A DNA stretch of 64,000 bases, from NCBI GenBank assembly GCA_041398545.1, contig JAWKUM010000003.1, forward strand, positions 222,385-286,384. The letters run 5' to 3'. Of the stretch, positions 3,999-59,042 are shown piece by piece. Below the pieces are notes generated by a model. That model was given only the letters and a program-made list of their open reading frames with translations. It was not told the origin of the DNA and searched no databases. Each line of letters starts with the position of its first letter. Position 1 is the stretch's first letter. Made by a program: the position numbers and the translations under genes. The DNA comes from Planctomycetota bacterium (GTDB taxonomy: Bacteria > Planctomycetota > UBA1135 > GCA-002748355).

Positions 3999-4776
3999 AT
4001 GGAACCCGATCCCGAGGTCCTTGCGACCCTCCAGGCCAAGGCCCGTCAGCAGTCGATCGACGAGCTGAAGGCCAAGGGCAAGACCAAGGTCAAGGTCATC
4101 CGGGCCAAGGACATCGCGGCCTTGATCCAGGAGGCCGTGCAGCGGGCGATCCAGGACTCCTCGCTTCTGACCCAGGACCAGGTCGAGGAGCTGACCCACA
4201 AGAGCAAGGCCGAATTCCAGGAGCTCCAGCAGCGCTGGCGCGAGCGGGAGCAGGCCGAGCGCGAGCGCGACGCCGAGATCGACCGCCTCCGCCAGGCCAA
4301 GGCCACGCTGCAGAAGCAGGTCGACGAGCTCGAGCAGCGGCTGCGCGGCGGCGCCCTGGCGGGGAGCCCCGCGGGGCCGCGGCCGGCGGCGAGGCCGCGG
4401 CCGGGGTCGACCAGAACATGCTGATGCTGCAGATGATGCAGCAGCTCATGGAGCTCAAGTCGCAGGCCTCCGCCCCGGCGCCCGCCGGCGGCGACTCCGA
4501 GGCCACGCTGGCATCGCGCCTGGACGCGATCGTCGGCTCCCTCGACAAGAAGCTCGAGAGCTTCGGCAAGAAGATCGGCGTCTCGAGCGCCGTCGACTCG
4601 GACGTCGACATGACCTCGCTGTTCGAGAGAGCTTCGACGTCGAGCTCGAGTCGAACATGGACGACGTCAAGGTCAAGACCAAGAAGGGCGGCGGCATCGG
4701 GGCCAACCTGGAGCGGATGAAGAAGCTCAGGGCGGCGACTGAGACACCCGGAGGCCGGCCCGCCAGGAAAGGGTAA
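3999..4776 (+). pseudogene. Coiled-coil protein interrupted by two apparent frameshifts (frame 0 -> 2 -> 1)
   Basis: RBS AGGAGA lies 8 nt upstream of the ATG at 3999. Coding-like sequence and high GC3 continue from track ORF 3999..4424 into the 3944..4720 frame (NMLMLQMMQQLMELKSQ...DKKLESFGKKIG...). After ~4625 they continue in the third frame (ESFDVELESNMDDVKVKTKKGGGIGANLERMKKL, stop 4774-4776). Confidence 0.55.
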
Positions 4777-11752: not shown

Positions 11753-12880
11753 TCAGTCCGGCCAGACGTCGCCGACGGCCCGGCACTCGTCGAGGGTCGG
11801 GACGAGGGCCATGCGGAAGAAGCGCTCCTGGCCGGGGCCGTAGAAGGAGCCCGGGGACACGACGATGCCGGCGTCGCCGAGGCGCTCGGCGTAGGCGACG
11901 TCGGTCTCGCCTCGGGGACCTCGACCCGGAGGAGCAGCGAGGCCGTGCCGGAGGGCGACCGGAGGCCGCGAGGCGAGCGGGTCAGGCAGGACGCGGCCTT
12001 GGCCGCGAAGACCTCGCGGCGCTCGTCGACGTGGGCCTGGTCGGCGCCGGGCCGCGGCGGCGGCCGCCTGGGTCACACCGGGGACTGCATGCCCATGCCG
12101 GCGCGATGGTGGCGCAGGGTCGCGATCAGGAGCCGGGTCGCCGGCCATGCGAAGCCGGTGGTAGCCGGTCGAACGCTTGCTCAACGAGTGGACGACGACG
12201 CAGCCCACCGCGGCCTCTGCTCGACAGGCTCCGCGGCGGCTCCCTCGAACCTACAGGTCGCAGTAGCACTCGTCCGACACCAGGGCGAAGCCGTGCCGGT
12301 CGCGGGCCTCGACCCAGGCCGCGTAGACCTCGCCCGGCATCGTCGCGCCGCTGGGGTTGTGCGGGTAGTTGAGGTAGACGAGCGCGGTCCGGGCCAGCTC
12401 GTCCTCGCCGAGGTCTGCGGGCCGGAGCAGGTAGTCGTTGTCGGGCCCGAGCCGGTGCCCGTGGGGCTCGGCCCCGGCGTACAGCGCGCCGAGCTCGAAG
12501 ACCCTGTACGCGGGCTCGCCGTAGACGACGAGGTCGCGCGGGTCCTCGTCGTGCACGAGGACCATCGGCATGTGGAAGATGGCCTCCATCGAGCCGGCCG
12601 TGGCCAGGACCTCGCGGGCCGGGTCGAGGGCGACGCCGAAGCGCCGCTCGACGTAGCCGGCCGCGGCCTCGCGCAGCTCGTCGCTGCCGTGGACGCTGGT
12701 GTAGGTGCTGCTCGTCGGCACGTTGTCCCGCAGGGCCGCCCGGATGAACTCCGGGGTCGGCTCGTTGGGGTCCCCGGTGCCGAAGTCGTAGAGGTGCAGC
12801 CCCTTGGCCCGGACGGCGGCCTTGCGCTCGTCGAGGCGGACGGTGGGGTACGGCTGGATCGCGGCGAGGCGTCGGTTCAT
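11753..12880 (-). pseudogene. Class I/II PLP aminotransferase (DapC/LL-DAP-aminotransferase-like) with an internal stop and several frameshifts
   Basis: Track ORF 12251..12880 (MNRRLAAIQPYPTVRL...YLNYPHNPSGA...SDECYCDL*) stops prematurely. The remainder is spread over other frames: EPPRSL, VVVHSLSKRS (PLP-lysine motif), GDP.LIATLRHHRAGMG, QAAAAAA, then the in-frame tail ETDVAYAERLGDAGIVVSPGSFYGPGQERFFRMALVPT (track ORF 11753..12208). Confidence 0.7.
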
Positions 12881-18569: not shown

Positions 18570-18722
18570 GGGCTCCTGGCCCCCCCAGCGGGCCATCGGC
18601 CCCCTCCCAGGGGGCATTGTGGATTCGGGGGCAGAGGTTAGGCTTCAAGCTTCAGGTCCGTCCGACCTGGCTCCTCTGGCATGCCAATCTGCGCTTCTGG
18701 ACCTTGGACCGAGAGGTCAACC

Positions 18723-19439
18723 ATGCGGGTTCAGCTCCCTTCACGCCGAGCAATGGTGATCTCGCGAGGGATTGCATCGCTGCTGTGTTCCTTGGTCATC
18801 GTGCCTTCCGGCTTTTGCGCTTGCCCTCAGACCAGCACTCCCGGAGTTTCGGTCACGGCAAGGACGCTGACCAAGGTCAACTGCTACGCCAAGGCTGAGT
18901 CGGAGGCACGGGTCAAGGAAGTTCCCGCTGACAAGGCGTTCGCGAGGTCCGTGAAGGTGGCCTCCTCCGAATCCAACGCCAGAGCGGACGTTACGGCAGG
19001 GCATTGGACGCGAGAAACACCCACTCGCGCGACGACGATGGTTTACGTCTCGAGCGCAGTGTCACTCCGATTGTCGAAGAAGGCCAATGCCATAGTCCAC
19101 ACCGCCGCAGACACAACGAACCCTGTCAAACATGGGTTCGAGTTCAAGCTGACGGCACCAGTCAAGACAACTGGAACACTGACCTTGACGATCTCCGGCC
19201 GTAGCACGCAGGGCGCGACGGATCAGTTCGATATCGTCGTCAAAGGGGATGGATGGTCCAAGAAACTCGCCTCGAGCAGCGACAAGCGCTTCGCGAAAAC
19301 GGTACTTCCCAACGTCTCCATTGACCCGACCGGGCTGATCATCGAAATCCACGGGTTGGCCGTGGCCAGCCTCACCGACAAAGGTCAATGCTCAGCCATG
19401 GGGCGCGCTTCAGCCCGCTTCGACGTCATCAGGCAATAG
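18723..19439 (+). CDS. Secreted hypothetical protein
   Basis: Track ORF 18681..19439; start preferred at MRVQLPSRRAMVISRGIASLLCSLVIVPSGFCA (signal-peptide-like). Ser/Thr/Ala/Lys-rich beta-type sequence. No motif recognised. Confidence 0.55.
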   Translation: MRVQLPSRRAMVISRGIASLLCSLVIVPSGFCACPQTSTPGVSVTARTLTKVNCYAKAESEARVKEVPADKAFARSVKVASSESNARADVTAGHWTRETPTRATTMVYVSSAVSLRLSKKANAIVHTAADTTNPVKHGFEFKLTAPVKTTGTLTLTISGRSTQGATDQFDIVVKGDGWSKKLASSSDKRFAKTVLPNVSIDPTGLIIEIHGLAVASLTDKGQCSAMGRASARFDVIRQ

Positions 19440-19450
19440 GGGGAGACCAG

Positions 19451-21463
19451 ATGCGGCTCAATTCGGTCTTCATTGTCGGTCTAGCATCTCTGGGCTTGTC
19501 TTGGCTCGGTGTGGGAGTCAGGGCTCAGGCTGTCATCCAAGTTTCCTCGTATGGCGCTGTTGTCAACGACGGCCAGAATGACCTTCAAGCGATCCGTGCT
19601 GCCATTGACGATCTGCCCGCCTCCGACGCGATCCTGCGCTTCGAGATCGGAACCTACGATCTCTATCCACGGGAGGAGCCTCCTACCGGACTCGGAACCC
19701 CGACTCCGGCCGGGGTGTTCCCGGTCAAGACCATGTTCGGCCTCGTGTCCAAAGCGAGGATCACCGTTGACGGCCAGGGCGCAGTCCTGATGTGCCATGA
19801 CTTCCTGCCCGACCAGCCGATCAACTCCAGCTACTACAACCTGTTTGCTTGCACCGATTGCACCGACATCGAGATCAGGGACCTGACGGTCAACATGTCG
19901 CGACTGCCGTACACGATCGGAACGTGTACGCAGATTGCCGGCGACCCAGTGGTAACAAATGTAGCGAACAGGTATTTCAGGATCGACATCGATCCGAGCT
20001 TCTTTGCCACCGGGTCTCTGCAAAACATGACAATGCACACCCTGTTGAATTGGCGGTCTGGGCATCCGAACGGCCAGAATTTCTATTACGTCCAACAGCA
20101 ACCAGCAAAAACGTTTGGCTCTGACTTTTATGTTGGCCAGATTACATCTGGAACGATTCACGACATCAAGGGGAGGTTCCCAATTGGGCCAGGCACATTT
20201 CCTAACGATCCTGGCTGGGTAATGATGAACGAGCTCAAGGCTCCCGGAGCCATCGGGCCAGATGATCATGGGAGGTTGCAGCTCGGAGACCAAGTCGTGA
20301 TTGCGCATCAGTCTAGTTACTACATCGCGTTCATGTTCGTGGATTGCACCCGTAGCTTTCTCACAAGCCTCACGGTGCACACCTGGCCGGGAATGGCGGT
20401 CAATCTCCTGCGCGACCGAGATGTCGTCATCGATGGCCTGCAGGTTCTGCCAGATCCGGCACGGCCATGGCCGGTTACGACTACTGCCGATGCCATCCAT
20501 GTCGCCAACACCGCAGGGACTTTGCAGGTCCATGATTGCCACCTCGAGGGGATGCTCGACGATGGATTCAATTCGTACGTGAATGCCCTGCCTGTAACAG
20601 CAATCGTCTATTCAAACGGGGTTCCCACCGTAAACGCCGTGCCCCGGTTCCCCCTGTGGATCTTCGACCCTGGTTCGACCTGGGAGTTCTACGATCAAGA
20701 CATGATCCCACTTGGGACACGACCGCTCGTCCTTTCGCAGAATGTCACGAATCCATCCACCCATCTGTTGACGTTCGCTAGCGTCCCTATTGGGAACATA
20801 GCCTACGTCTGCAATCTTTCCCATTTTCCGGATACGACAGAGATCGTCGGGACAACCGTCGCCCGGAATCGTGGCATGGGGTTGATCCTGAGGAGGAACA
20901 CCCATGTCGACCAGTGCCTTTTTGAATGGATCACCGGTTCCGGGATCGTGGTCTCTCCTTCGATTGGCTTATGGGACGAAGGGCCTGGCGGGTCGAACGT
21001 CCTGGTCGAAGGCTCCCTGTTACAATATTGCAACCGCGGTTGGGGGTTACACGACGGGGGAGCCACTGAGGGTACGATCAGCGTAAAAACACACAAGTTT
21101 GTCAATGGAGCTTGGACAACCGGTCCTGTGGGCTCGATCCAGGACGTCGTCCTGAGGAACCTGACGATCCAGGATTCTGGGGGTGCCTTGGTGTGCGTCC
21201 GGTCCACGAACAGGTTCACGATCGATCAGTGCGCCCTGGGTGCATGTAATGATCTTGGATATTTGCTCACGGATCGAACAGCAGATCCACAAGATGGGGG
21301 GAGGGATCGGTACGCTGCCGAGTCTCTTTTGTTCTTTACCGAGTCGCAGGACATCACGATTACGAACAACTTCTTCACGGGAGCGGGGACCTATCTCAAC
21401 TCCGACAGAACTTGGCCGATGATCTTCGGATTTTATACCAAAACCAACAACACCGGATTCTAG
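19451..21463 (+). CDS. Secreted right-handed beta-helix (pectate-lyase-fold) protein
   Basis: Track ORF 19388..21463, starting at MRLNSVFIVGLASLGLSWLGVGVRAQA (signal peptide). The N-terminal VSSYGAVVNDGQNDLQAIRAAID resembles the pectate_lyase_3 / GH28-like entry motif. Repeated ~22-25 aa Asn/Gly/hydrophobic turns downstream. Confidence 0.7.
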   Translation: MRLNSVFIVGLASLGLSWLGVGVRAQAVIQVSSYGAVVNDGQNDLQAIRAAIDDLPASDAILRFEIGTYDLYPREEPPTGLGTPTPAGVFPVKTMFGLVSKARITVDGQGAVLMCHDFLPDQPINSSYYNLFACTDCTDIEIRDLTVNMSRLPYTIGTCTQIAGDPVVTNVANRYFRIDIDPSFFATGSLQNMTMHTLLNWRSGHPNGQNFYYVQQQPAKTFGSDFYVGQITSGTIHDIKGRFPIGPGTFPNDPGWVMMNELKAPGAIGPDDHGRLQLGDQVVIAHQSSYYIAFMFVDCTRSFLTSLTVHTWPGMAVNLLRDRDVVIDGLQVLPDPARPWPVTTTADAIHVANTAGTLQVHDCHLEGMLDDGFNSYVNALPVTAIVYSNGVPTVNAVPRFPLWIFDPGSTWEFYDQDMIPLGTRPLVLSQNVTNPSTHLLTFASVPIGNIAYVCNLSHFPDTTEIVGTTVARNRGMGLILRRNTHVDQCLFEWITGSGIVVSPSIGLWDEGPGGSNVLVEGSLLQYCNRGWGLHDGGATEGTISVKTHKFVNGAWTTGPVGSIQDVVLRNLTIQDSGGALVCVRSTNRFTIDQCALGACNDLGYLLTDRTADPQDGGRDRYAAESLLFFTESQDITITNNFFTGAGTYLNSDRTWPMIFGFYTKTNNTGF

Positions 21464-21473
21464 GAGAGAATCC

Positions 21474-23192
21474 ATGTCACGCTGGATCACTCGCAGGCCC
21501 CCATGCGGATGGGCATGGCTCCCCGGCTCCGTGGGCAGGTGCATGCTTCTGCTTTTTGCTACCTTGCTCCTGGTCGCCAACCCGGAGGCGCAGACACATC
21601 TCTACACCCACTACGGGGACAAGGCCGGACAGTGGTTCGGTGGTAGCGTCGCCATCGTCGGCGATACCGACAGGGATGGGTTCGATGACTACGCGACCAC
21701 CTCGGAGTGGTACCCGCCTTCGGCCTCTGGTGGAGATGCGGTGCGGCTGTACTCAGGGCGAGACGGGCATTTGATCGGCAAGGTGCCGCTGCCTGGCCCC
21801 GGGAGCGCCACATCAGTATCTGGGTTGGGGGACATGGACAGTGACGGCCATGCTGACTTCGGGATCTTGATCAATACGACGGTGCTGATTGGATATCAGT
21901 TTCATTCAGGAAAAACCATGCAGATGATTGCCAAGGGATCTTGGCCCTTGTCGCTACAAAACGGAAAAATCCGCCCAATTGCAGATCTTGATCACGACAA
22001 TATTCCCGACGTTATTATTAGTAGTTCAGAGTATTCAAACTCTGATCGGGTCGTGATCGTATCTGGAAAGTCAGGGAAGATAATCTTGGATCTCAAGCCT
22101 GGCGGGCTCAACTACACCTATTTTGGCCATTCGGTTTCAAGGGCTGGAGATGTAAACGGAGACGGGATCGAGGACTTCCTGGTCGGCGATCCGCTGTTCG
22201 GAAGCAATCCAACCTATAATTTCTACGGGCCAGGACGCGCATGGTTGTTCTCTGGGGCGAACGGAGGGGTCATCTACACGTTCTGGGACACGACCTACAA
22301 ACTTCCGTCTCCGTCGCCAGGCTTTGGGAGTTCCGTATGCGGTTGCGGTGATCTTGACGGTGACAAGGTTCCCGATCTCGCCATCGGGTGCCCGGGATTC
22401 GACGGCAACGGCACGGACGCCGGCGCCGTGTTTATCTACTCGGGCAAGACCGGTAATCTCTATCGTACCCTGCACGGCCCTGTCGCAGGATCATACTTGG
22501 GGTGGTCGGGGGCCAACGTGGGCGATTGGAACCGGGACGGCTATCCTGATCTGGCTTGTGGTGGGCAAACATTTCTTCCAGGCAATCAAGCTGCAGGTGT
22601 CGTGCGAGTCATTTCTGGCAAGGACGGAAAGGAGTTCGCCACCATTGTCGACGACAAGGTTGATATGGGATTGGGATCGTGCCTGAACGCCGATGGAGAC
22701 ATCGACGGAGACGGCGTCCGGGATCTGGTCGCGGGTCTGTCGCCAGCATCCTGGGCAAGCAACAACTTGTGGTACTTCAAGTGCTACTCCGGCGCCGGCC
22801 GCTCGCTCTGGAGCGATACGCACAGGGTCTCTGTGGCCGCTCAGGATATGCAGGTCCTGACCCTCGAGGCCGGGGCCGGCCAGGCGGGCAACCCCTATCT
22901 CGTGCTCGGCAGCCTTGCCGGGATCAACCCAGGGCTACAACTAGGTACGCATCTCCTTCCTCTCAACCTCGATCCCTACCTTGTCTGGACGGCGACCGTG
23001 CCCAACAGCCCCTTCCTGCAGGGCTCACTCGGGCTGCTCGATGCAAAGGGGACGGCCAAGATCCAGTTCGTGGCTGGAGCGGGCTTTCCTGCTGGATTGG
23101 CCGGCCTGCGCATGGATCACGCAGCCGTAGTCTTCGGCAACACGGGGATCGCCACGGTCAGCGATTGGGTCCCGCTGCTGCTGGAGAAATAG
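21474..23192 (+). CDS. FG-GAP / integrin-alpha-like beta-propeller repeat protein, secreted
   Basis: Repeated FG..(V/L)...GD.(D/N).DG..D motifs (GDTDRDGFDD, GDMDSDGHAD, GDVNGDGIED, GDLDGDKVPD, GDWNRDGYPD, GDIDGDGVRD). Hydrophobic N-terminus CMLLLFATLLLVA. Confidence 0.8.
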   Translation: MSRWITRRPPCGWAWLPGSVGRCMLLLFATLLLVANPEAQTHLYTHYGDKAGQWFGGSVAIVGDTDRDGFDDYATTSEWYPPSASGGDAVRLYSGRDGHLIGKVPLPGPGSATSVSGLGDMDSDGHADFGILINTTVLIGYQFHSGKTMQMIAKGSWPLSLQNGKIRPIADLDHDNIPDVIISSSEYSNSDRVVIVSGKSGKIILDLKPGGLNYTYFGHSVSRAGDVNGDGIEDFLVGDPLFGSNPTYNFYGPGRAWLFSGANGGVIYTFWDTTYKLPSPSPGFGSSVCGCGDLDGDKVPDLAIGCPGFDGNGTDAGAVFIYSGKTGNLYRTLHGPVAGSYLGWSGANVGDWNRDGYPDLACGGQTFLPGNQAAGVVRVISGKDGKEFATIVDDKVDMGLGSCLNADGDIDGDGVRDLVAGLSPASWASNNLWYFKCYSGAGRSLWSDTHRVSVAAQDMQVLTLEAGAGQAGNPYLVLGSLAGINPGLQLGTHLLPLNLDPYLVWTATVPNSPFLQGSLGLLDAKGTAKIQFVAGAGFPAGLAGLRMDHAAVVFGNTGIATVSDWVPLLLEK

Positions 23193-23282
23193 AACGCAAC
23201 ATTCGCTGGCCGGATCCGCTCGGTCGCGGTCAGCCAGTGGTGACAGGCGAGGGTCTCGTCTTGCACGGGCCCGCTTGCGGCG

Positions 23283-23302
23283 GGACCCATGCAAGTGGGT
23301 CC
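23283..23302. terminator. Hairpin between convergent genes (FG-GAP gene and pfk)
   Basis: GGACCCA-tgcaag-TGGGTCC, a perfect 7-bp stem in the 120-bp convergent intergenic region. Confidence 0.3.
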
Positions 23303-24561: not shown

Positions 24562-27225
24562 TCAGCCCTGCTGGATCCGGGTCGCGTCGAGGGCCTGCTT
24601 CATGCGGCGGACGAGGTCCTGGTAGTGGACCCGCGTGGTCTCGCCGAGGTTGCCGGCCTGGAGCCCGGCCAGGCTCGAGTAGAGCTCCATGAGGTTGGCG
24701 CGGGCGGCGGCCAGGGCGTCGTGGGGGACGACGGCCCCGACGTCCTCGGTCGCGAGCGTGAGCAGGACCTCGACGTAGGCCCGCTGCAGGTTGCGGCGGA
24801 ACACGTCGACGTCCTGGCCGGCGGCGACCTCGGAGAACACGCCCTCGCGGAGGCCGCGGAACAGCTCGGCGACCGTGAACGCGGTCTGGCCCTGGGGGAC
24901 CATGAGCTCGCCCTCGACGATGCGGTCGAGCACGAGCGGGTGGAACAGCTGGTAGAGCACCGAGGTCTGGAAGCCCTTGACCTGGTCGACGAGCGACCAT
25001 TCGATCGGGCCGTCGAGCTGCATGCCCCAGTGGTTCCACCGCCACGGCGTCATGCGCGCGAGCTGGTCGGCCGGGAGCCTGTACGGCTTGCTCGCGAAGC
25101 AGTTCTCGAGCAGGAAGGCCAGGGCCTCGCGCTGCTCGTCGGGGGGCACGGGGTCCATCGGCCGCTCGACGCCGGGGTCGCCCTTGTGCACGCGGCTGAC
25201 GCGGACGCCGCCGATCTTCTTGGCCATGAAGCGGCAGCCCGAGGCGGCCTGGCCGAGCAGGACGCTGACGCCGATGCGCTCGAACTGGTGGCCCTCGCCG
25301 GGGCGCACGAGGCGGTCGGCGACCTCGGGCAGGAGCTTGGCGACGAGCTGCATCCGCTCCTCGGCGAACTCCGAGACGTCGCCGATGTCCCAGGCGTTGC
25401 AGTCGGGGTCGACGCCGGCCCCGAACGGCATGTAGTGCAGGGCGTCCTCGTCGGTGCCGTAGGCGTTGCCGGGCTTGCCGGCCTCGGACGCGATCTCGAG
25501 CAGCTTGGGCAGCTCGGCCTCGGGCGCCGGGGCGTCGATCGGCGTGTAGCCGTAGCGGATCGCCCAGACGTCGTACGGGCCGACGCAGCTCGCGTAGTAC
25601 TCGCCCTGGGTCTCGCCCTCGGGGGCGATGTTGATCGCGTTGTAGTCCATGACCGAGCCGACGAGGCCCTCCTTGGCGGTCTTCTCGGCGTCGTTGATCT
25701 CCTTGCCGTCGTGCAGGGTCGAGGCCTTGAAGTTGTGGCGCAGCCCGAGGGTGTGGCCGACCTCGTGCATGACGGTCTCGCGCAGGGCCTGCTCGAGGTA
25801 GGTGAAGGGGACCTTGCGGGCCGGCGTCGCGTCGGCCAGGTCGACCGGCTGCACGCCCTCGGACGGGTCGGGGAGCATGCCCGACAGCATGTGCATCAGC
25901 GTGATCTCCTGCGACCGGTGCATGCCCTGGGTGCAGTAGGCGCGCAGCTTGTGGTCCTGGCCGAGGCTCTCGGCCGTCGAGATCGCCAGGACCTCGGCCA
26001 TCGAGGCCTTGGGGTCGTAGGCCGGGATCTGGAACTGGTACTCGAACCAGAAGCCCCGCATGAGGCTCTCCTCGAACAGGATGTCGGCGTCGAGGATCTG
26101 GCCGGTGTAGGGGTCGACCCGCGACGGGCCGATCGCGCCGAACGTCGACTCGTGCGACGTGATCCAGCGCAGGCTGTTGTAGCTCGCGTCCTCGGGGTCG
26201 AACTGGTCGTCGGAGAGCTGCTGCCGGACCTCGATGGCGTTGACGAAGCCGGCCTCGGCGAAGGCCTTGTTCCAGCCGAGCGCGCCCTCGCGCACGGCCT
26301 TGCGCCACTCGATCGGCACCGTGTTCTCGATCCAGAAGATGATCGGCTCCTTGGGCGGGCTGACCTTGGCCGTGGGGTCGGCCTTCTCGAGCTTCCAGCG
26401 GTTGATGTAGCGGACCCAGCTCGAGAGCTGCTGCATGCGCGCGAAGTCGCGCTTGGCCGTCAGGAAGTAGCCGACGCGATCGTCGGCCAGCCGCGGCCGG
26501 TACGAGCCCGGGGGCGGCAGGATGCGGAAGCTCGTGTGCACGGCCAGGGTCATGTAGCGGGCGTCGCCGCTCGTGTAGACCTGCTCCTGGCTCTGGCCGC
26601 TGTAGGCGCAGTCGACGCGGACCTCGACGTTCTGGCCGAAGGCCTTGCAGTAGTCGACGGTCGTGCGCGACGGGTCGAAGCGGTACGCGCCCTGGAAGTC
26701 CTTGGACACCTGGCGGGCGAGGTCGTGGGGGTCGCGCAGGAGCCAGCCGGTCAGGTCGACGACCATGCCGCCCTTGGGCGACCTGGACAGCAGCGGCAGC
26801 ACGGCCAGGATGGACTTGGGGTAGCCCATCTTGACGGCCTTCTTGAGCGCCTCGCCCTTGCTGGCGACGAAGCGGGGGTTCTCGCGCAGCAGGTAGACCT
26901 TGTCCTCGCCGGGGACGAACTTGACGACCCACTCGTCGATCGGCATGCCCGACAGGAGCCAGCCCTTGCCGAGCCCGGACGCCAGCGTCGAGATCATCAG
27001 CAGCGGCCGGTCCATGACCGGGCGCGGCAGCTCGGCGAGCAGCCGCCCGTCCTTGTAGTAGAGGTTGAACAGCCCCTCCTTGCTCGGCACGTCGGGGGCG
27101 CGTTGCATGCCCTCGACGACCTTGGCGAAGTCCTGGAGCTTGGAGTCCTGGGCCGCGAGCGGCAGGGTCGCGAGGCCCAGGGTGACGGCGGCGGCGAGCT
27201 TGTGCGTGAGCATCTTGGTCGTCAT
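24562..27225 (-). CDS. Secreted zinc metalloprotease (metzincin-type; DUF5117/DUF4953-like large protease)
   Basis: Distal 887 aa of track ORF 24562..28842, starting at MTTKMLTHKLAAAVTLGLATLPLAAQ (signal peptide). HEVGHTLGLRHNF (HExxHxxGxxH) and a downstream GSVMDY Met-turn. Confidence 0.85.
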   Translation of the reverse strand: MTTKMLTHKLAAAVTLGLATLPLAAQDSKLQDFAKVVEGMQRAPDVPSKEGLFNLYYKDGRLLAELPRPVMDRPLLMISTLASGLGKGWLLSGMPIDEWVVKFVPGEDKVYLLRENPRFVASKGEALKKAVKMGYPKSILAVLPLLSRSPKGGMVVDLTGWLLRDPHDLARQVSKDFQGAYRFDPSRTTVDYCKAFGQNVEVRVDCAYSGQSQEQVYTSGDARYMTLAVHTSFRILPPPGSYRPRLADDRVGYFLTAKRDFARMQQLSSWVRYINRWKLEKADPTAKVSPPKEPIIFWIENTVPIEWRKAVREGALGWNKAFAEAGFVNAIEVRQQLSDDQFDPEDASYNSLRWITSHESTFGAIGPSRVDPYTGQILDADILFEESLMRGFWFEYQFQIPAYDPKASMAEVLAISTAESLGQDHKLRAYCTQGMHRSQEITLMHMLSGMLPDPSEGVQPVDLADATPARKVPFTYLEQALRETVMHEVGHTLGLRHNFKASTLHDGKEINDAEKTAKEGLVGSVMDYNAINIAPEGETQGEYYASCVGPYDVWAIRYGYTPIDAPAPEAELPKLLEIASEAGKPGNAYGTDEDALHYMPFGAGVDPDCNAWDIGDVSEFAEERMQLVAKLLPEVADRLVRPGEGHQFERIGVSVLLGQAASGCRFMAKKIGGVRVSRVHKGDPGVERPMDPVPPDEQREALAFLLENCFASKPYRLPADQLARMTPWRWNHWGMQLDGPIEWSLVDQVKGFQTSVLYQLFHPLVLDRIVEGELMVPQGQTAFTVAELFRGLREGVFSEVAAGQDVDVFRRNLQRAYVEVLLTLATEDVGAVVPHDALAAARANLMELYSSLAGLQAGNLGETTRVHYQDLVRRMKQALDATRIQQG

Positions 27226-28793
27226 GAGATCGGGAAGGGCCGGCGGCGGTACTCGTTGCCGACCGACTTGAGGATCCGGCACATGGTCTGGGTCGAGTCC
27301 GCGTCCTCGCGCATGAAGAGGTGCAGGACCGAGTCGAAGGTCGTCAGGTAGGCCGAGGGGTCGACGACGAGCTCGCCGCGGCCCGGGGGCACGAGGTCGA
27401 CGAACAGCGGCGTGACCTCGCGATAGCGCAGGACGTCGAGGAGCGCCGGGATCAGGTAGTCCGGGCCCTCGAGCAGCGGGAAGCGGCGGTGGAGCTGGAA
27501 GACGTTGTCGAAGGCCAGCCGCCGGATGCCGGGGTCGCGCTCCGGGTCGTCGCCGGGCGCGACCATGCGCTGGATGTCGGACAGGAACTTGCCGGCCGAC
27601 AGGAACTCCGGGTGGAGGTACAGCAGCCGGAACCGGTCCGAGAAGCGGCCGCCCTCGAGCAGCGGGGCCAGCGACGCGTGGCGGCGGCAGATGCGCAGGA
27701 CCGCGTCGTCGTCCTCCTTGGTCGAGACCAGCAGGCCGGTCTCGCCCCGGGACGCTCCGGCGGCCAGGAAGCGCAGGGCGAACAGGGTGTAGCGCGTGCC
27801 GGGCTCGGCCAGGACGACGGTCGAGGACAGCTGGACCGGGCCGCTGCCGGCCTCGAAGGCCTCGTGGAACTCGGGCGTCAGGAACGGGATGGGCTCGTCT
27901 CCGCGCGGGGGGACCTGGAGCTGGCTGGTGTCGCGGACGAGCGAGAGCTGGGCCGCGACCGAGGGGTAGACGTGCACCCCCGGCCCGCGCTCCCCGCGGG
28001 CGCCGAGGTAGAGGTCGCGGCGGATGGCCCGGCCGGCGATCGAGAACTGGTGCTTGCCGCGGTAGTAGTACTGGTGTCGCGCCTTGCGGATCTCGAGCGT
28101 GCGCGACTTGAAGGTCCCGATGTCCTCGAGCGAGAGGTGGAGGATGACGTCGGTCGACAGCTCCTCGGCGCTCGGGAACTTCTGCCGGACCGCCGGCTGG
28201 TCCTCGAGGATGAAGATCGAGTGGATCTGGTGGCGCAGCAGCTCCTTGCGGGTCGCGACGAGGGCCTGGCGCTTCTCGTAGTAGTCGAGGTCGGTCAGCA
28301 GGAGCCCGACGTTGTCGAGGCAGACCATGCCGATCTCCTGCGCGCGCAGGTAGTTGGACACCTCGGTCTGGATCCAGTCGAGGTCCACGCGGAACTCGCG
28401 GCCCAGCGTGCCGCCGGCGCCCGGGGTCGCCTGGGTCAGGACGAGGCGGTTGACGCCGCCCGACGGGGCCTCGGTCTCGAACGCGATGCGGTGGGAGGTC
28501 TCGCCCTCGGCCGTCTCGACCGGGTTGGGGGCGCCGTAGAAGCCGCCGAAGTCCTCGACGAGCTTCTTGTGCAGGTCCTTGGGGCTCTGCTCGACCGAGT
28601 AGAACAGGAAGGTCCGCCCGCCCCGGTCGTCGCTCCACCAGGCCCGGACGAGGAACTCGAGCCCGAGCAGGGTCTTGCCGGCGCCCGGCTCCCCCGTCAC
28701 GAACATGAACGCCGCCGAGTCGGACGGGAAGCGGATGCCTCCGCCGAGGATCGCGTCGAGACCGTCGATGCCGGTCTGGATGGTCGAGAACAA
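27222..28793 (-). CDS. KaiC-like / RecA-superfamily two-domain ATPase
   Basis: The N-terminus IQTGIDGLDAILGGGI...FVTGEPGAGKTLLGLEF has the KaiC/RadA-type Walker A. The second homologous domain has a degenerate P-loop (LAEPGTRYTLFALRF, no Lys). The stop overlaps the protease start (ATGA). Confidence 0.8.
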   Translation of the reverse strand: MFSTIQTGIDGLDAILGGGIRFPSDSAAFMFVTGEPGAGKTLLGLEFLVRAWWSDDRGGRTFLFYSVEQSPKDLHKKLVEDFGGFYGAPNPVETAEGETSHRIAFETEAPSGGVNRLVLTQATPGAGGTLGREFRVDLDWIQTEVSNYLRAQEIGMVCLDNVGLLLTDLDYYEKRQALVATRKELLRHQIHSIFILEDQPAVRQKFPSAEELSTDVILHLSLEDIGTFKSRTLEIRKARHQYYYRGKHQFSIAGRAIRRDLYLGARGERGPGVHVYPSVAAQLSLVRDTSQLQVPPRGDEPIPFLTPEFHEAFEAGSGPVQLSSTVVLAEPGTRYTLFALRFLAAGASRGETGLLVSTKEDDDAVLRICRRHASLAPLLEGGRFSDRFRLLYLHPEFLSAGKFLSDIQRMVAPGDDPERDPGIRRLAFDNVFQLHRRFPLLEGPDYLIPALLDVLRYREVTPLFVDLVPPGRGELVVDPSAYLTTFDSVLHLFMREDADSTQTMCRILKSVGNEYRRRPFPIS

Positions 28794-28840: not shown

Positions 28841-29476
28841 ATGCTGTCCGAGCCCGAGGACTTCGCGCGCCTGATCCTGCTGCGCCACCCCCAACTCGCC
28901 GACCCCGACCGCGAGCTCGCGCTCGGCCGGCGCGACGGCGAGCTGGCGCGGCGCGGCCGGGCGCAGACCCTGGAGGTCCTCCGCGCCCTGGCCGGGCTCC
29001 GGCTCGACGCGGTCTGGTCGGCCCCGGCCCGGCACTGCCGCGAGGCGGCCGCGGCCCTGGTCGCCGACCTCGAGCTCGAGGTCGGCGTCGACGAGCGGCT
29101 GGCCGACCAGGACCTCGGCGACTGGAGCGGGCTGCGCTGGGACGAGATCCGGGCCCGCGACGAGGCCCTGCTGCGCGACTTCTTCGCCGACTACGGCCTC
29201 GTGGCCCCGCCCGGCGGCGAGCGGCTGGCCGACACCGTCGACCGGGCCCTGGACTGGTGGAACGAGCAGGCCGAGGCGGCCCGCGGCCGGACCTGGCTCC
29301 TGGTCCTGCCGGCCCCGATCCTCGGCGGGCTGGCGGCCCGCCTGCTCGGCCTGTCCCTGCGCCGGGCCCCGGCCCTGAGCCTGCCGGCCGCGGCCCTGGG
29401 CATCCTCGACGTGTTCCGGGACGGGGCCGTGCTCCGCTCCTGGCACCCCCTCTGCCTGCGCGACGACATGCCCTGA
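28841..29476 (+). CDS. Histidine phosphatase (phosphoglycerate-mutase-like) family protein
   Basis: LILLRHP (RHG-type motif), ...ERLADQDLGDWSGLRWDEI, LVLPAPIL. Divergent from the KaiC-like gene with a 47-bp spacer. Confidence 0.7.
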   Translation: MLSEPEDFARLILLRHPQLADPDRELALGRRDGELARRGRAQTLEVLRALAGLRLDAVWSAPARHCREAAAALVADLELEVGVDERLADQDLGDWSGLRWDEIRARDEALLRDFFADYGLVAPPGGERLADTVDRALDWWNEQAEAARGRTWLLVLPAPILGGLAARLLGLSLRRAPALSLPAAALGILDVFRDGAVLRSWHPLCLRDDMP

Positions 29477-29542
29477 GGCCGGGCCCCGGGGCCCCCCGGC
29501 AGGCCCTGGATGTCAGGGTTGTGTTCGGGTAGCGTCCCGGCC

Positions 29543-30994
29543 ATGGAAAGGGCTTCCCCCGCGACCGGGCGGGGGGGAGCGCGACGGCGCTCCCCGACCC
29601 GGTCGGCGCTGCTCCTGCACCTCGACATCGACGCCTTCCTGGCCTCGGTCGCCCAGCTCGTCGAGCCGTCCCTGCTCGGCCTGCCGGTCGTCGTCGGCAG
29701 CGGCGTCGTCGCCTCGCGCTCGTACGAGGCCAAGGCCCGCGGCGTCGAGACCGCGATGCCGATCGCCGAGGCCATGCGGCGCTGCCCCGGCCTCGTGCTC
29801 CGCGAGGGCGACGCCTTCGTCGCCGAGCGCTTCCGCCGGCGCGTCGCGGCGATCCTCGGCGGCTTCGCGCCGCTGGTCGAGGTCGGCTCGCTCGACGACA
29901 TGTACGCCGACCTGTCGGGGCTGTTCGCCGAGGAGCTGTGGCAGGCGCCGCCCGACGCCACGGGCCTCGCGCCGCTCGACCACGCGCTGGCCGCGTGGAC
30001 CGCGGCGCTGCGCGCGCGGGTGCGCGGCGAGACCGGCCTGTCGGTGTCGCTCGGCCTCGGCCCGACGCGGACCCTGGCGCGGCTCGCGACCGACCGGGCC
30101 AAGCCCGGCGGGACCTTCCGCGTGCGGCCCGGCGAGGAGCGCGCCTTCCTCGACCCGCTGCCGGTCGCCAAGCTGCCGGGCGTCGGGCGCCGGACCGCGG
30201 CCGAGCTCGAGCGCTACCGCATCCGCACGGTCGGCGAGCTGCGCCTCGTCGACCGCGCCCTGCTCGAGGAGTGCTTCGGCCGCCGCGGCGGCGACCTGTG
30301 GCTGCGCGCGCGCGGGCTGCCGGCCGGCTCCAAGGACCTCGTCGTGCACGGCGGCGCCGAGCACGGGCGCGCCGGCGGGGCCTTCGGCGCCGACGGCCTG
30401 GCCAAGGAGCTGTCGCGCGAGACGACCCTGGTCGAGCCGTCGGCCGACCCCGGCCTGCTGCGCGCGATGCTGTCGTACCTCGTCGACCGCGCGAGCCACC
30501 GGCTGCGCGGCCAGGACCGGCTGGCCGGCCGGCTCGAGCTGCGCCTGGCGGCCTGGGCCGCCGAGGCGGCCGCCCGGCCGGCGCTGCGCCGCGCGCGCGC
30601 AGCCTCGAGTGGGCGCGCCGGCGCGGCGGCTGCGCGAGCGAGCGCCGGCGCGGCGATGAGCTCGTCGCCGTGGCCCTGGCCCTGCTCGACGAGGCCGTCG
30701 GGTCCCGGCGGCTGCTCGCCGGCGGCGCCGGCGTGTGCCTGCAGGACCTCGAGCCGGCGCACCCCCGCGCCAGGGGCCGACCTGTTCGCGTTGCTGGTCG
30801 CCGAGGGCGGGGCGGGCCTCCGCGGCGACGGCCTTCAGGCGCTGCGGGCGCGCCGGCTCGACGAGAGCCTCGACGCCGTCCGCGCACGCCACGGCTTCGG
30901 CGCCGTCGTCGCCGGGGCCTCGATCGCCCTGCTCGGGAGCCTGCCGCGCACGCGCGACGGCTTCCGGCTCTACGCCCCGTCCCTGAGCCTGTGA
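29543..30994 (+). pseudogene. Y-family DNA polymerase (DinB/ImuB-like) with an out-of-frame central segment
   Basis: Track ORF 29510..30994, starting at MERASPATG. Motifs: LHLDIDAFLASV, SLDDMYADLSG, LPVAKLPGVGRRTA. Between ~30540 and ~30780 the plausible sequence (DELVAVALALLDEAVGSRRLLAGGAGVCLQDLEP) lies in another frame (track ORF 29938..31434), then returns to the original frame (GADLFALL...). Confidence 0.7.
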
Positions 30995-33900
30995 CCGCCC
31001 TGCTGCGCTGCCTGAGCCACTTCAGCTTCCTGACCGGGACGCTGGCGCCGAGCGAGCTGTGCTCGCTGGCCGCGCGCCACGACGTCGCCCACGTCGGGCT
31101 GTGCGACTGGGGCGGTTGCATGCAGCCCGCTGTTCGCGGCCGAGGCCGCCCGCGTCGGCCTCCACGCCCTGCACGGGGTCGTGCTCGGCGGCGGCGCCGG
31201 CATGGTCACGTCATACCTGGCGACGAGGACGGCCTCCTGCTCGCTCTGGCCGCGTCGTGTCGGACTGGCCGGCTCGAGAGACCTTCGGCGTGGCCGACCG
31301 GGTCGCGGCCCTGGTCGACCTCGTCGCCGCCAACCGCGACGGCCTGTTCGTGCTGGCCGAGCGCGTCGCCGGGCTGCTGGCCGCGCTCGGGCCCGACGAC
31401 CTGCGCGTGGCCCCGCCGCTGCAGCCTGGCCTGACCGCCTGCGCCCTCGGCGAAGGCCGCGGCGCGCGCCCGCGCTCGAGCGTCGCGGACGGCGGCCGGC
31501 CCGGGCGGGCGCGCCCGCGGCCGACCCCGGGCGACGACGTCGCGGCCGACGCGCGCAAGGTCCTCGACCTGCCGCGGCCCGACCCGCGGCACCGCCTGCT
31601 GGCCTTCGCCGAGGCCCGTGGCGTGGTCGCCGTGGCCGCGCCCTGGTCGCCTACGGCGGGCCGGCGACCGCGCGCGCCACCGCCTCGCGACGGCCTGCAA
31701 GAAGGGCACGCTGGTCGACCTCGTCGGCGACCGCGCGCTGGCCCTGCGCGGCTCGTTCTTCCCGACGCCGGCCGAGCTCCGCGAGGGCTACGCCGACCGG
31801 CCCGCGGCCCTGGCCGAGGCCGAGCGCCTCGCCCTGCGCTGCACCCTCGACCTGTCGCGGCCGCGGCGCATCGTGTTCCCGTCGGCCGCCGGCGCCCTCG
31901 GCGGCGACCCCGCCGAGGCCGAGGGGCGCGCGGCCGCGGTCCTGCGCGCCCGCGCCGAGGCCGGGTCTTTTCCGCGGCTGTTCGATCGCGCCGGAGCGCC
32001 GGCCCGGGAGCCGCCCGGCCGAGGCCCGGCGCCGGCTCGAGCAGGAGCTCGGCACGATCGCCGAGCTCGGCTTCGCGCCGTACTTCCTCGTCGTCGACGA
32101 GATCGTCCAGCTCGCCCGCGCCCACGGCATCCCGGTGTTCGGCCGCGGCTCGGCCGCCGACAGCCTGGTCGCGCACCGCCTCGTCACCGACGCCGACCTC
32201 GCTGCGCTACCGGCCAGCTTCGAGCGCTTCCTCAACGCCGACCGTTTCCGCCGCGGCGAGGGCGACCCGCTACCTCGACGTCGACCTCGACTTAGCGCGC
32301 CGCCGCGACGAGCCGTCGGCCTCGTCGCGCGCCGCTTCGATGGCGACCGCGTCGCGCTGCTGTCGACGGTGCCGACGCTCGGCTTCCGCGCGGCTCGCGC
32401 GAGGTCGCGCGGGCCCAATGGCCTGCCGCGCCGCTCGACGAGGCCGACCGCTGCGCCCGCGGCCTGCCGCGGACGCTCGACCCCGCCACGGTCGCCGCCG
32501 CCGCGCCGGCGACCCGCCGCTCGCGCCGATCGCGGCCCGCGCCGGAGTTCGGGCGGCGGCTCGCCGGCGCCGCCGGGCCTCGAGGAGCGCCGCCGCGAGG
32601 CGCGCATGCTGCGCGGGGCCTTCGCGCTCGTCGGCGCGCACCGCTGCCTCGGCCTGCACCCGGGCGGGACCGTGCTCGCGCCGGTGCCGGCCCGCGACCT
32701 GATGCCGCTCGAGCGCGCGGCCAAGGGGCTCGTCTGCGTGCAGTGGGACAAGCACGTCGCCCCGCGCATGGGCCTCGTCAAGATCGACCTGCTCGGCAAC
32801 CACGGTCTGTCGATCTTCGAGGACGCGCAGCGCGAGCTGCTGCGGCTCGGCGTGTCGCTCGAGGCCGTCGAGGCCCTGCGCGAGACGCCCGAGGAGGACC
32901 CGCAGGCGGCCGCGCTGGCCCGGGCCGGGCGCACGCTCGGCGTGTTCCAGGTCGAGTCGCCGGGCATGCGCGCGCTCCTGACCCGCGTCGACGCGGGCCG
33001 CTGCGACGACGTGATCCGCGCGCTGGCGCTGATCCGGCCGGGCCCGGCCGGCTCCGGCATGCTCGACCGCTACGTGCGGCGCGTGCGCGGGCTCGAGCCG
33101 ACGCCGGCCCTGCCGCCCGGCCTCGGGCCCGTGCTCGGCGACAGCCGCGGCGTGATGCTGTACCAGGAGGACGTCATCCACGTGCTCGCGGCCCTGACCG
33201 GGCTGCCGCTCGGCCAGGCCGACCTGCTGCGCCGCGACCTCGGCAAGGAGTGCCGCGGGGCGGGGCGACGGGCCGGTGCCGGCGACGGGCCGGCGACGGC
33301 CCGCTTCCACGCGCTGTGCGCGGCCAGGGCGTCGACGCGGCCACGGCCGACGCCTTCTGTCCAGCTCGCCCGCTTCGGCGGCTACTCGTTCAACAAGGCC
33401 CACGCCGTGACCTACGGCCGCCTGGCCTGGCGCATCCTGCGGGCCAAGGCGCAGCAGCCGGCCGCGCTGTTCGCGGCGATCCTGGCCAACGACACCGGCT
33501 ACCACGACAAGCGCGTCTACGTCGAGGAGGCCCGCCGCCTCGAAGCGTGCCGGTGCTCGCGCCCTGCGTACCGCTGGCGCTCGGCTTCCGCGCCGAGCGC
33601 CAGGGCGGCACCGGGGCCGCGCGCTGCGCGTCGGCCTCGGCGAGGTCAAGGGCCTGCCCGAGGCCTTCGGCGAGGCCTCGTCGCCGACCGCGAGGACCGC
33701 GGGCCGCATTTCGCCGCCGACGAGCTCGTCGGCCGGGTCGGGGAGCGCGGCCTGACGGTCGAGGAGGACTGGATCGAGCGGCTGATCCTCGTCGGCGCCT
33801 TCGACCTGCTCGAGGGCACGCGGCCCGAGAAGCTGTGGCGCTTCCGCGTCGGCTTCGGCCGGCGCCGCCGCCGCGCGGCCGCGCCCGGCCCCGCCGGCGG

Positions 33901-34348
33901 CGAGCTGTTCCCCGGCGCGCTCGAGCGCCGCGCGCCGATCATCCCCTGCCTGCCCGAGTATTCCGACGCCGAGAAGGCGCGCCTCGAGGTCGAGCTGCTC
34001 GGCTACCCGATCCGCGCGCACGCGATCACGTACGCGCCGCCGCTCGACGACGCCGGCGGCTGCCTGCCGCTGAGCGAGGTCCCGGCCCACGTCGGCCGGT
34101 CGGTGCAGGTCCTCGGCTGGCTCGCGGCCACGCGCCGCCACCGCACGCGCGGCGGCGAGTGGATGTGCTTCCTGACCCTCGAGGACGCCGGCGGCATGGT
34201 CGAGGCCGTGCTGTTCCCGGCGGTGTTCCGGCGCTGCGGCGGCGAGCTGGCCGGCCAGGGCCGCTACCGCCTGCGCGGCCGCGTCGAGCTCCGCGAGGGC
34301 GCCGTCGCCCTCCACGCCGACATGCTCGAGCGCGTCGACGGGGAGTGA
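30991..34348 (+). pseudogene. dnaE2: Error-prone DNA polymerase III alpha (DnaE2-like), heavily frameshifted
   Basis: GTG at 30991 overlaps the upstream stop (GTGA). Pol III alpha motifs are scattered over all three + frames: LSHFSFLTGT, ELGTIAELGFAPYFLVVDEIV, GRGSAADSLV, FERFLN, RYLDVDLDL, GVFQVESPGMR, GGYSFNKAHAVTYG, ALRVGLGEVKGLPE, and an intact C-terminal OB region (...WMCFLTLEDAGGMVEAVLFP...). I traced more than ten frame switches by eye. Confidence 0.8.
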
Positions 34349-34429
34349 CGCCCGGGTGGGGGGCTCCGGTCCGGCCGCCGGACGCTAGACTGCGCGCGCC
34401 CAGTGGTCGACCCGCATCGAGGAGGGCAG

Positions 34430-56552: not shown

Positions 56553-56702
56553 AACCGGAACCGGAACCGGAACCGGAGCCGGAACCGGAGCCGGAACCGG
56601 AACCGGAACCGGAGCCGGGACCGGAACCGGAACCGGGACCGGAACCGGAACCGGGACCGGAACCGGAACCGGAACCGGAACCGGGACCGGGACCGGAACC
56701 GA
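56553..56702 (+). repeat. Hexanucleotide tandem array A: 25 units, consensus AACCGG
   Basis: Counted by hand: AACCGG x16, GACCGG x5, AGCCGG x3, AACCGA x1, perfectly phased. One + frame reads (Glu-Pro)n and closes with TGA at 56705-56707. Confidence 0.95.
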
Positions 56703-56966: not shown

Positions 56967-58293
<1,327 letters not shown>

Positions 58294-58317
58294 GCGTCCG
58301 GCCGGGCACCGGCCCGC

Positions 58318-58971: not shown

Positions 58972-59042
58972 GGCCCGCAGCCTAGCCGCTGCCCGGGCCG
59001 GGGACAGCGGCCGGTCGTGATGCCCCGGGGACGCGGCCGGGC

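Follow-up and report, generated by a model that had tools for sequence, protein, structure and literature searches.

An ImuA-less PolY-DnaE2 cassette in a Planctomycetota metagenome assembly, with frameshifts that probably reflect local consensus errors

Relationship to described PolY-DnaE2 modules

PolY-DnaE2(-RecA) modules that lack ImuA have been described and are putative mutasomes (Timinskas & Venclovas 2019, PMC6511836; NAR 2026, PMC12926913). Among them are DnaE2B-PolY-RecA in Bacteroidetes (Cellulophaga algicola) and DnaE2B-iPolY-RecA in Streptomyces (scDinB2) and the gbDinB2 group (PMC6511836, PMC12926913), and the class of RecA-NT-like motifs in PolY tails was described in the first of these studies (PMC6511836).

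We analysed a 64,000-nt stretch (the window) of an NCBI Planctomycetota metagenome-assembled genome (MAG) from a mixed community. Its PFK protein is 100% identical to NCBI MEZ5987994.1 (Planctomycetota). Neither an independent assembly nor a close relative was found, identity to the best relatives being no more than 52-61%. The window carries a cassette which the initial annotation had recognised as a Y-family polymerase gene (polY) and a DnaE2-like C-family polymerase gene in operon-like order, and this identification was upheld. The overlap of the two genes is seen in the sequence, where the GTG start (30991-30993) overlaps the PolY stop codon TGA (30992-30994) in a GTGA tetranucleotide. Feature coordinates are collected in Table 1.

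The cassette shares with the ImuA-less PolY-DnaE2(-RecA) modules a polY gene placed directly upstream of, and co-oriented with, a dnaE2-like gene, an operon devoid of imuA, and a PolY tail with a RecA-NT-like motif (recognised by eye) and no ImuB-C domain. The gene order is conserved in relatives: of 162 related loci, 44 have a PolY homolog close to dnaE2, and each of the 19 inspected more closely has it upstream on the same strand (directly upstream in L003, L053, L036, L010, L002 and L040, among others). It differs from these modules in its Planctomycetota lineage, in a deposited sequence that is frameshifted, and in a PolY that keeps the D-x-D and SLDD motifs, with D for the catalytic E. 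With the canonical ImuA-ImuB-DnaE2 system of Proteobacteria and Actinobacteria (ImuABC) it has in common an operon-like pairing of a DnaE2-type polymerase with a Y-family partner carrying clamp-like and RecA-NT-like motifs. In contrast to ImuABC, however, no ImuA or ImuA' gene is present and a histidine phosphatase gene stands upstream instead, while the Y-family protein has its acidic active-site residues in place and no ImuB-C domain, its best scores being to Pol IV models. A canonical mutasome was rejected on these grounds, with no imuA at the cassette in the 64-kb window and a PolY that does not have the hallmarks of ImuB, a dead active site and an ImuB-C domain.

Upstream of the cassette stands a histidine phosphatase gene, as the initial annotation had it (Pfam His_Phos_1, 1-191/194, 114.7 bits; GC3 0.991). 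Beyond it lies a divergent gene for a 523-aa KaiC-like ATPase, which is not ImuA; a phosphatase homolog adjoining a KaiC-like gene is likewise found upstream of polY-dnaE2 in two related loci (L019 and L055). No imuA or imuA' was found in or beside the cassette within the 64-kb window, and the ORFs downstream have no relevant Pfam match. The missing imuA, which the initial annotation had noted, is not an anomaly in view of the published ImuA-less modules (PMC6511836, PMC12926913).

As judged from its sequence features, the Y-family protein is DinB-like and not an ImuB. The acidic motifs LHLDIDAF (D-x-D) and SLDD are present, the catalytic E being replaced by D in the latter; the best NCBIfam matches, none of which reaches its cutoff, are to Pol IV models, and no NCBIfam ImuB model matches. 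A clamp-like Q-G-D-L-F motif (~30771-30787) precedes the RecA-NT-like motif RRLDESLDAVRARHGFGAVVAG, whose consensus in the profile of 17 relatives is rrrrLdaalDalRarhGFgkllrG and whose likeness to the N-terminal helix of RecA was judged by eye. Since only ~25 residues follow this motif, there is no ImuB-C domain.

The locus is best read as an ordinary ImuA-less translesion-synthesis module, in which a DinB-like PolY bearing a clamp-like motif and, in its tail, a RecA-NT-like one would be translationally coupled to the DnaE2-like polymerase via the GTGA overlap. By analogy with the published PolY-DnaE2(-RecA) modules, PolY may bind the beta clamp and RecA where the DNA carries a lesion and bring in DnaE2, which would then carry out the error-prone extension. 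Frameshifts aside, the cassette is a Planctomycetota example of these recently described modules, a modest addition.

Table 1. Features of the cassette and of the other frameshifted genes (window coordinates)
Feature	Position	Strand	Remarks
Hypothetical coiled-coil protein gene	3999..4776	+	Patch 1; switches probably at ~4380 and ~4640
Class I/II aminotransferase gene	11756..12880	-	Patch 2, 11908-12254; ~6 frame switches (three-frame reading)
Histidine phosphatase (branch 1) gene	28841..29476	+	Directly upstream of cassette, co-oriented; no frameshifts
Y-family polymerase gene (DinB-like PolY)	29510..30994	+	Open ORF; alternative ATG at 29543; Pfam IMS, IMS_HHH, IMS_C
Out-of-frame stretch of PolY (end of little finger)	30607..30776	+	Entry by -1 shift, exit net +1
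Patch 3	30607..33677		3.1 kb; all 13-16 or more junctions of both polymerase genes; spans polY/dnaE2 boundary
RecA-NT-like motif in PolY tail	30851..30916	+	Conserved in profile of 17 relatives
DnaE2-like C-family polymerase gene	30991..34348	+	GTG start; at least 11-14 frame switches needed to read it
asnS (asparaginyl-tRNA synthetase)	56967..58270	+	Patch 4, 57566-58255

Frame switches in the two polymerase genes

Frameshifts were located with a purpose-written, frameshift-aware profile-to-DNA alignment, in which dnaE2 was represented by a profile of 40 intact Planctomycetota homologs and by a second one built from the two closest relatives, and PolY by a profile of 17 relatives. Phase switches were called in addition from GC3 phase plots and a 7-state Viterbi path.

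With the 40-homolog profile, the dnaE2 fragments form a single Pol III alpha homolog, colinear over profile positions 11-1067, and the frameshift-aware alignment, a check suggested with the initial annotation, scored 862 bits, compared with 678 bits for the highest-scoring match in a single frame. Its path contains 11 switches (six +1 and five -1), at ~31107, 31247, 31640, 31963, 32276, 32312, 32395, 32548, 33542, 33604 and 33677. At the same penalty the profile of the two closest relatives gave 14 switches, and up to 23 at a lower penalty. The earlier count of more than ten switches is borne out by this range of 11-14, and the peptides quoted in its support (LSHFSFLTGT, LFAAEAARVGLHALHGVV, FGVADRVAALVDLVAANRDGLF, DVDLDL, GVDAATADAF and ALRVGLGEVKGLPE) all lie on the alignment path or in the frame given for them. 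From 30588 to 33676, the GC3 phase and Viterbi analysis called ~12-15 same-strand phase switches, none of them with a stop codon at the junction. Brief excursions that are compensated after 15-50 nt occur frequently (e.g. 32277-32312 and 33313-33360 in dnaE2), and the net shift from the start of dnaE2 to its end is nonzero.

Repair of the frame yields a product of 1119 aa with DNA_pol3_alpha (15-260/260), finger, HHH_6 and OB domains (Pfam), ending directly after the OB fold. It matches the NCBIfam 'error-prone DNA polymerase' model NF004225 over 9-1031/1047 with 352 bits, under the 939-bit cutoff; the DnaE1 model NF004226 gives 423 bits, far under its cutoff and with coverage only from residue 200. 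The database label of its relatives is 'error-prone DNA polymerase'. The motifs GRGSAADS, PDVDLD, KIDLLG, FQVES, RPGP, LYQED and KAHA are kept in the corrected frames. None of the ~1100 corrected codons is a stop, where 2.5-5 would be expected if substitutions were 10-20 times as numerous as indels, a multiplier that we assumed. An intact single-frame dnaE2 is found in relatives as 40 complete ORFs of 1000-1200 aa, and is also intact in L082, whereas in the closest relative, L081 (61% identity), the gene is truncated and has one frameshift.

In polY, an out-of-frame part had been placed in the centre of the gene with a length of ~240 bp. Its existence is confirmed by the alignment (455 bits with shifts, 420 without), but it is shorter, ~170-190 nt (30607-30776 by alignment, 30588-30774 by GC3 Viterbi), and falls in the C-terminal third. 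The Pfam IMS_C match, which covered 2-49/109 and stayed below cutoff at 19 bits, takes in 2-109/109 at 36 bits once the frame is repaired.

Other damaged genes and the extent of the patches

Frame switches are not restricted to the cassette. In asnS at least four were located (~57566, 57722, 57936 and 58228), together with a -1/+1 pair which turns the class II motif 2 GPTFRAE into GLTFGPR. The frameshift-aware score was 483 bits compared with 262, and Pfam tRNA-synt_2 coverage rose from 5-80/308 in the raw ORF to 5-297/308 (173.6 bits) after repair; the repaired product aligns over its full length with T. thermophilus AsnRS 5zg8 (426 bits). Tandem hexamer arrays adjoin the asnS patch. In the aminotransferase gene the 5' 60% is clean; the Pfam Aminotran_1_2 match, 5-190/361 at 66 bits before repair, extends over 5-350/361 at 94 bits after it, and the product then aligns colinearly to PDB aminotransferases as far as residue 363. 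The hypothetical coiled-coil gene probably carries two frame switches, as suggested by three successive GC3-phase segments whose junctions lack stops and by readable peptides across frames, in a sequence with no homolog for confirmation.

All junctions fall in four patches totalling ~4.4 kb (~4.36-4.64, 11.9-12.25, 30.6-33.7 and 57.57-58.26 kb). The remaining ~59 kb shows no switches by GC3 phase, and its large genes give full-length single-frame Pfam matches. Patch 3 is flanked by clean parts, the first 1.07 kb of polY (~1.1 kb) and the last 0.66 kb of dnaE2; the probability of junctions falling in so narrow a range is 0.007 for this patch and 0.012 for the aminotransferase. Frameshift density in the damaged genes is ~5-17 per kb, all of them ±1. 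The G/C third-position bias, which the initial annotation had described as sharp throughout, is indeed maintained, with GC3 at 0.974 in patch 3 compared with 0.978-0.991 in the clean parts. At 0.42 GC3-phase switches per kb, the window ranks highest of 65 high-GC sequences (itself and 64 related contigs, the median of the contigs being 0). The junctions lie mostly away from homopolymers of at least 4 bases, and the patches, with a GC content of 0.70-0.79, are not the highest-GC segments of the window. The classic error signatures, homopolymer slips and GC-dropout polishing gaps, are for this reason not seen.

Origin of the frameshifts

Indel-rich consensus patches occur in long-read or hybrid-read metagenome assemblies that are incompletely polished. 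The patches described here resemble them in their local, dense single-base indels, which strike essential and non-essential genes with neither stops nor compositional decay, and differ in that the expected association with homopolymers or extreme GC is not evident. We consider local consensus errors in the MAG contig to be the probable explanation of the frameshifts, because asnS and the aminotransferase gene, at other places in the window, show the same kind of damage. The same ±1 shifts in unrelated and housekeeping genes, in patches that ignore gene boundaries, are what such errors would produce. The exclusive occurrence of indels, the absence of stops and the preservation of GC3 and motifs speak for this explanation, as do the compensated excursions, the MAG source, the intact dnaE2 of relatives and the top phase-switch rate. 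Against it speak the lack of a link to homopolymers or GC extremes, the clustering of indels in particular genes, as in real pseudogenes, and the frameshift in the dnaE2 of L081.

The frameshifts would then be single-base consensus errors limited to a few low-quality patches of the contig, possibly stretches covered by noisy long reads only or missed by polishing, and the genes of the organism itself are probably intact. The initial annotation had proposed that the mutagenesis cassette in particular was broken, or was rescued by frameshifting. This is not supported in view of the same shifts in asnS, the aminotransferase gene and probably the hypothetical gene; its fallback, that the indels are artefacts, accounts better for sub-gene patches which disregard a gene boundary, contain no stops and keep GC3. 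Claims of pseudogenes, gene loss or frameshifting drawn from the contig's indel-rich patches, at least four in number, should be withheld pending a check of the reads.

Real decay, in which the PolY-DnaE2 module, asnS, the aminotransferase gene and others are true pseudogenes of a lineage that is losing genes and has lost its error-prone polymerase, is the main rival explanation but unlikely, with a small but appreciable chance of being right. In the deposited sequence the frameshifts are beyond doubt; they are clustered in particular genes and are tied neither to homopolymers nor to extreme GC. Translesion-synthesis cassettes are dispensable, asnS and the aminotransferase could be so if the genome has GatCAB or paralogs, and the dnaE2 of the closest relative is likewise frameshifted and truncated. 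Pseudogenes of decaying genomes such as that of Mycobacterium leprae also have several frameshifts per gene. Such pseudogenes, however, carry nonsense mutations, deletions and compositional drift as well, along the whole gene, whereas here only ±1 indels are found, in sub-gene patches with GC3 at ~0.97. Old decay would have to be assumed for at least five pseudogenes among ~45 genes, each with 5-17 indels per kb, but in-frame stops and large deletions are absent and the catalytic motifs persist. Patches that cover half a gene, and one that crosses a gene boundary, are unlike uniform neutral decay, motif 2 of asnS is affected, and the rest of the window, very long ORFs included, is pristine. 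With zero stops, GC3 held and junctions confined to sub-gene intervals, the damage does not show the marks of true pseudogenes formed by neutral decay. If the frameshifts were real, this would be a free-living planctomycete without a damage-inducible mutagenic polymerase, which bears on the DNA-damage tolerance of such lineages.

The more specific proposition that the patches are real tracts of single-base indels on the kilobase scale, inactivating PolY-DnaE2, asnS and the aminotransferase in a free-living, high-GC planctomycete, is improbable; if true, it would indicate either that several genes have decayed very recently or that some unknown process generates indels locally.

It is quite improbable that the patches arose by mis-assembly, with strains living side by side, or paralogous copies, collapsed or chimerically joined in a consensus that would match no real molecule. 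The mixed-community origin of the MAG, the sharp patch edges and the hexamer arrays beside the asnS patch are compatible with it, but such collapse usually produces SNP mosaics and not dense single-base indels, and tblastn detected no second copy of dnaE2 or asnS in the window, the sole other match being the OB fold of asnS itself.

Finally, the chance that the genes function despite the shifts, through programmed ribosomal frameshifting, transcriptional slippage or selected compensated frameshift pairs, is close to negligible, for while the polY ORF stays open and several excursions regain the home frame within 15-190 nt (the polY pair and the two in dnaE2 given above), there are at least 14 sites with neither slippery heptamers nor homopolymer tracts, more than in any recoding system known to us, the net shift of dnaE2 does not cancel, and the catalytic PDVDLD, motif 2 of asnS and the last part of the little finger in PolY all lie off the open frame.

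Frameshifts along the dnaE2 gene

The GC content of the window is very high (71.5% overall, 77–82% over 29–34.5 kb), so that long ORFs occur in all frames and an open ORF is no proof of an intact gene. Since intact genes here have a GC3 of 0.98–0.99, GC3 phase sharply indicates the reading frame. As shown by GC3 phase plots and a 7-state Viterbi analysis, the region 30588–33676 contains about 12–15 switches of the + strand coding phase, and none of the junctions has a stop codon. When 65 high-GC sequences, namely the window plus 64 related contigs, were put through the same analysis, the window had the highest phase-switch rate (0.42 per kb; median 0). Outside the frameshift-rich patches, full-length single-frame matches were obtained for PFK, an 889-aa Met-zincin and a Na+/H+ antiporter, and a 1397-aa PQQ/PEGA protein also matched in a single frame.

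At a GC content of 78% there are few stop codons, and tblastn with intact homologs consequently ran through the shifts. We therefore wrote a frameshift-aware profile-to-DNA alignment (a dynamic programme), applied to dnaE2 over 30900–34400. Relatives were fetched from 80 genome and 80 metagenome loci, all on Planctomycetota-type MAG contigs and with identities of at most 52–55%; the profile consisted of 40 of these with intact single-frame ORFs of 1000–1200 aa. The alignment was colinear through profile positions 11–1067, needed 11 frame switches, of which six were +1 and five −1, and scored 862 bits compared to 678 bits for the best single-frame match. Such an alignment had been proposed in the initial annotation, and it assigns the fragments to one gene. 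The claim that dnaE2 is readable only with more than ten switches was likewise confirmed, 11 being a lower bound since a profile made of the two closest relatives, L082 and L081, gave 14 switches when the penalty was kept and as many as 23 when it was lowered. The motifs GRGSAADS, PDVDLD, KIDLLG, FQVES, RPGP, LYQED, KAHAVTYG and RVGLGEVKGL are kept across the fragments. In Pfam searches the repaired product matched DNA_pol3_alpha (15–260/260) as one stretch, and showed an HHH_6 domain which is absent from the raw ORF.

Fragmentation as a family trait, first suggested by search matches all of 571 aa or less, was rejected because the 40 related loci are intact at 1000–1200 aa, as is L082. Likewise, the weak tblastn match near 57 kb is the OB fold of asnS and not a further copy of dnaE2. 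The closest protein (P0001, from L081) shares 61% identity with the window dnaE2 product. Its gene (332–2811 of a 3.6 kb contig, GCA_046754305.1) carries one frameshift too, at about 1778, and is truncated, ending at profile position ~790 and followed by a glycosyltransferase gene.

PolY and the type of cassette

The GTGA start/stop overlap at 30991–30994 is present as described. With a profile of 17 upstream homologs, positions 30607–30776 of polY were read in another frame (455 versus 420 bits); the out-of-frame stretch reported initially therefore exists, at this extent instead of ~240 bp. The Pfam IMS_C domain was full-length and above cutoff only after repair, and the acidic motifs LHLDIDAF and SLDD are retained. 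The best NCBIfam matches of PolY were Pol IV models, all below cutoff. Its tail carries a clamp-like Q-G-D-L-F and, as judged by eye, a RecA-NT-like RRLDESLDAVRARHGFG motif (motif classes from PMC6511836). Only ~25 residues follow the latter, so that PolY lacks an ImuB-C domain; this Y-family protein is not an ImuB. The C-family protein and the NCBIfam 'error-prone DNA polymerase' model aligned from end to end, with a score below cutoff; the protein stops after the OB fold. In many relatives, PolY lies directly upstream of dnaE2.

PolY-DnaE2 modules without ImuA, probably using RecA instead, have been published (Timinskas & Venclovas 2019, PMC6511836; also a 2026 survey, PMC12926913). The absence of imuA noted in the initial annotation is thus expected for this type of cassette which, frameshifts aside, belongs to these already known modules. 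By analogy, at a lesion PolY would bind both RecA and the clamp, and would recruit DnaE2 for mutagenic extension. Upstream of polY, a gene for a KaiC-like double-domain ATPase is divergent from a histidine phosphatase gene. In L019 and L055, two related loci of Planctomycetota, the same pair precedes polY-dnaE2, so the neighbourhood is partly conserved.

Coordinates of features in the window and of the conserved gene pair in related loci
Feature	Position	Strand	Remark
Hypothetical coiled-coil gene	3999–4776		seems to run through three frames
Class I/II aminotransferase	11756–12880	−	~6 frame switches, all within 11908–12254
Low-GC island ORF 1	18681–19439	+	
Low-GC island ORF 2	19388–21463	+	beta-helix
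Low-GC island ORF 3	21474–23192	+	FG-GAP repeats
KaiC-like ATPase	27222–28793	−	
Histidine phosphatase	28841–29476		
polY	29510–30994	+	
dnaE2	30991–34348	+	
AACCGG tandem array	56553–56701		~25 copies
CTCCGG tandem array	56787–56942		~26 copies
asnS (asparaginyl-tRNA synthetase)	56967–58270		open ORF, N-terminal 254 aa only
KaiC-like/phosphatase pair, L019	1271–3387		
KaiC-like/phosphatase pair, L055	3–1491		

Frameshifts in other genes of the window

Besides the cassette, coding-phase analysis marks three further places in the window; the damage is not specific to the polymerase genes. Frameshift-aware alignment of asnS scored 483 bits versus 262 bits, with at least four switches (~57566, 57722, 57936 and 58228). 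Its raw ORF covers tRNA-synt_2 at 5–80/308 only, against 5–297/308 (174 bits) for the joined frames, and the joined protein aligned over its full length with Thermus thermophilus AsnRS (PDB 5zg8, 426 bits). Class II motif 2 reads GLTFGPR in place of the expected GPTFRAE, which we interpret as a −1 and a +1 shift separated by nine bases. For the aminotransferase, Pfam coverage rose from 5–190/361 to 5–350/361 upon repair, and the repaired protein gave colinear matches to PDB aminotransferases. The coiled-coil gene, which had neither a homolog nor a Pfam family to compare with, probably contains two switches, at ~4380 and ~4640. A candidate patch at 52.98–53.2 kb was rejected as a frameshift, being a low-complexity Gly/Ala-rich segment.

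Two hexanucleotide tandem arrays lie just upstream of asnS; translation of the CTCCGG array gives, depending on the frame, a Pro/Ala/Ser-rich or an (LR)n repeat. At 58300–59050 both strands have a noisy coding phase, and no protein could be read from them; this segment may be non-coding or of low complexity, or may extend the asnS error patch. No RNA feature emerged from Rfam and tRNA scans of the window. The stretch at 18600–23300 (GC 54–61% versus ~72%) is devoid of the GC3 periodicity of the other parts; an rRNA reading was rejected in favour of a low-GC protein-coding island, which may have been acquired horizontally.

Consensus error or gene decay

The source is a MAG, the window PFK being 100% identical to NCBI MEZ5987994.1 (MAG: Planctomycetota bacterium). 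At least 28 junctions fall in four patches (~4.36–4.64, 11.9–12.25, 30.6–33.7 and 57.57–58.26 kb) totalling ~4.4 kb, 7% of the window, with 5–17 indels per kb. Shifts are absent from the first 1.07 kb of polY and from the last 0.66 kb of dnaE2, and the 3.07 kb between, across the gene junction, carry 16 or more; the first 60% of the aminotransferase gene is clean. Junction ranges so narrow had probabilities of 0.007 and 0.012. All lesions are indels, with 0 stop codons in ~1100 corrected dnaE2 codons and no large deletion seen. Assuming 10–20 substitutions per indel, taken as typical of bacterial mutation spectra, and with a stop-generating fraction of 1.8% computed here, an estimated 2.5–5 stops would be expected in dnaE2. 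GC3, described initially as still sharp in the fragments, is 0.974 away from the junctions versus 0.978–0.991 in clean parts of the same operon.

The initial annotation was therefore right in all essentials about the frameshifts of both genes, as judged by phase plots and frameshift-aware alignments, and its alternative that the indels are artefacts best explains the patch layout, the indel-only lesions and the other genes struck. The biologically broken mutasome is unsupported, the same shifts affecting asnS, the aminotransferase and probably the coiled-coil gene. We infer that the frameshifts are likely a local consensus error. This is weakened by junctions that are not at long homopolymers, by patches that are not the most GC-rich segments, by asnS and aminotransferase genes that could be dispensable, and by the single frameshift in the nearest relative. 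As for the cause, GC dropout was rejected, since patch GC is 0.70–0.79 and equally GC-rich neighbours are clean, as was homopolymer slippage as the main source, few junctions being near runs of at least 4 bases. Runs of at least 5 bases occur at 0.3 per kb in the main patch (30500–33700) and at 2–3 per kb in its flanks. The four indel-rich patches of the contig need flagging before any pseudogene claim downstream.

Real decay, a true loss of the frameshifted genes, would accommodate these same weaknesses but appears unlikely. Neutral decay is disfavoured because the patches are smaller than genes and ignore their boundaries, because damage is confined to indels at nearly intact GC3, and because a housekeeping synthetase is struck in a catalytic motif; moreover, the indel density would imply very old pseudogenes, in conflict with indel-only damage. 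Recoding or compensated frameshifts are implausible, as 14 or more non-slippery sites would be required, the net shift differs from zero and, in the open ORF, catalytic motifs are not in frame.
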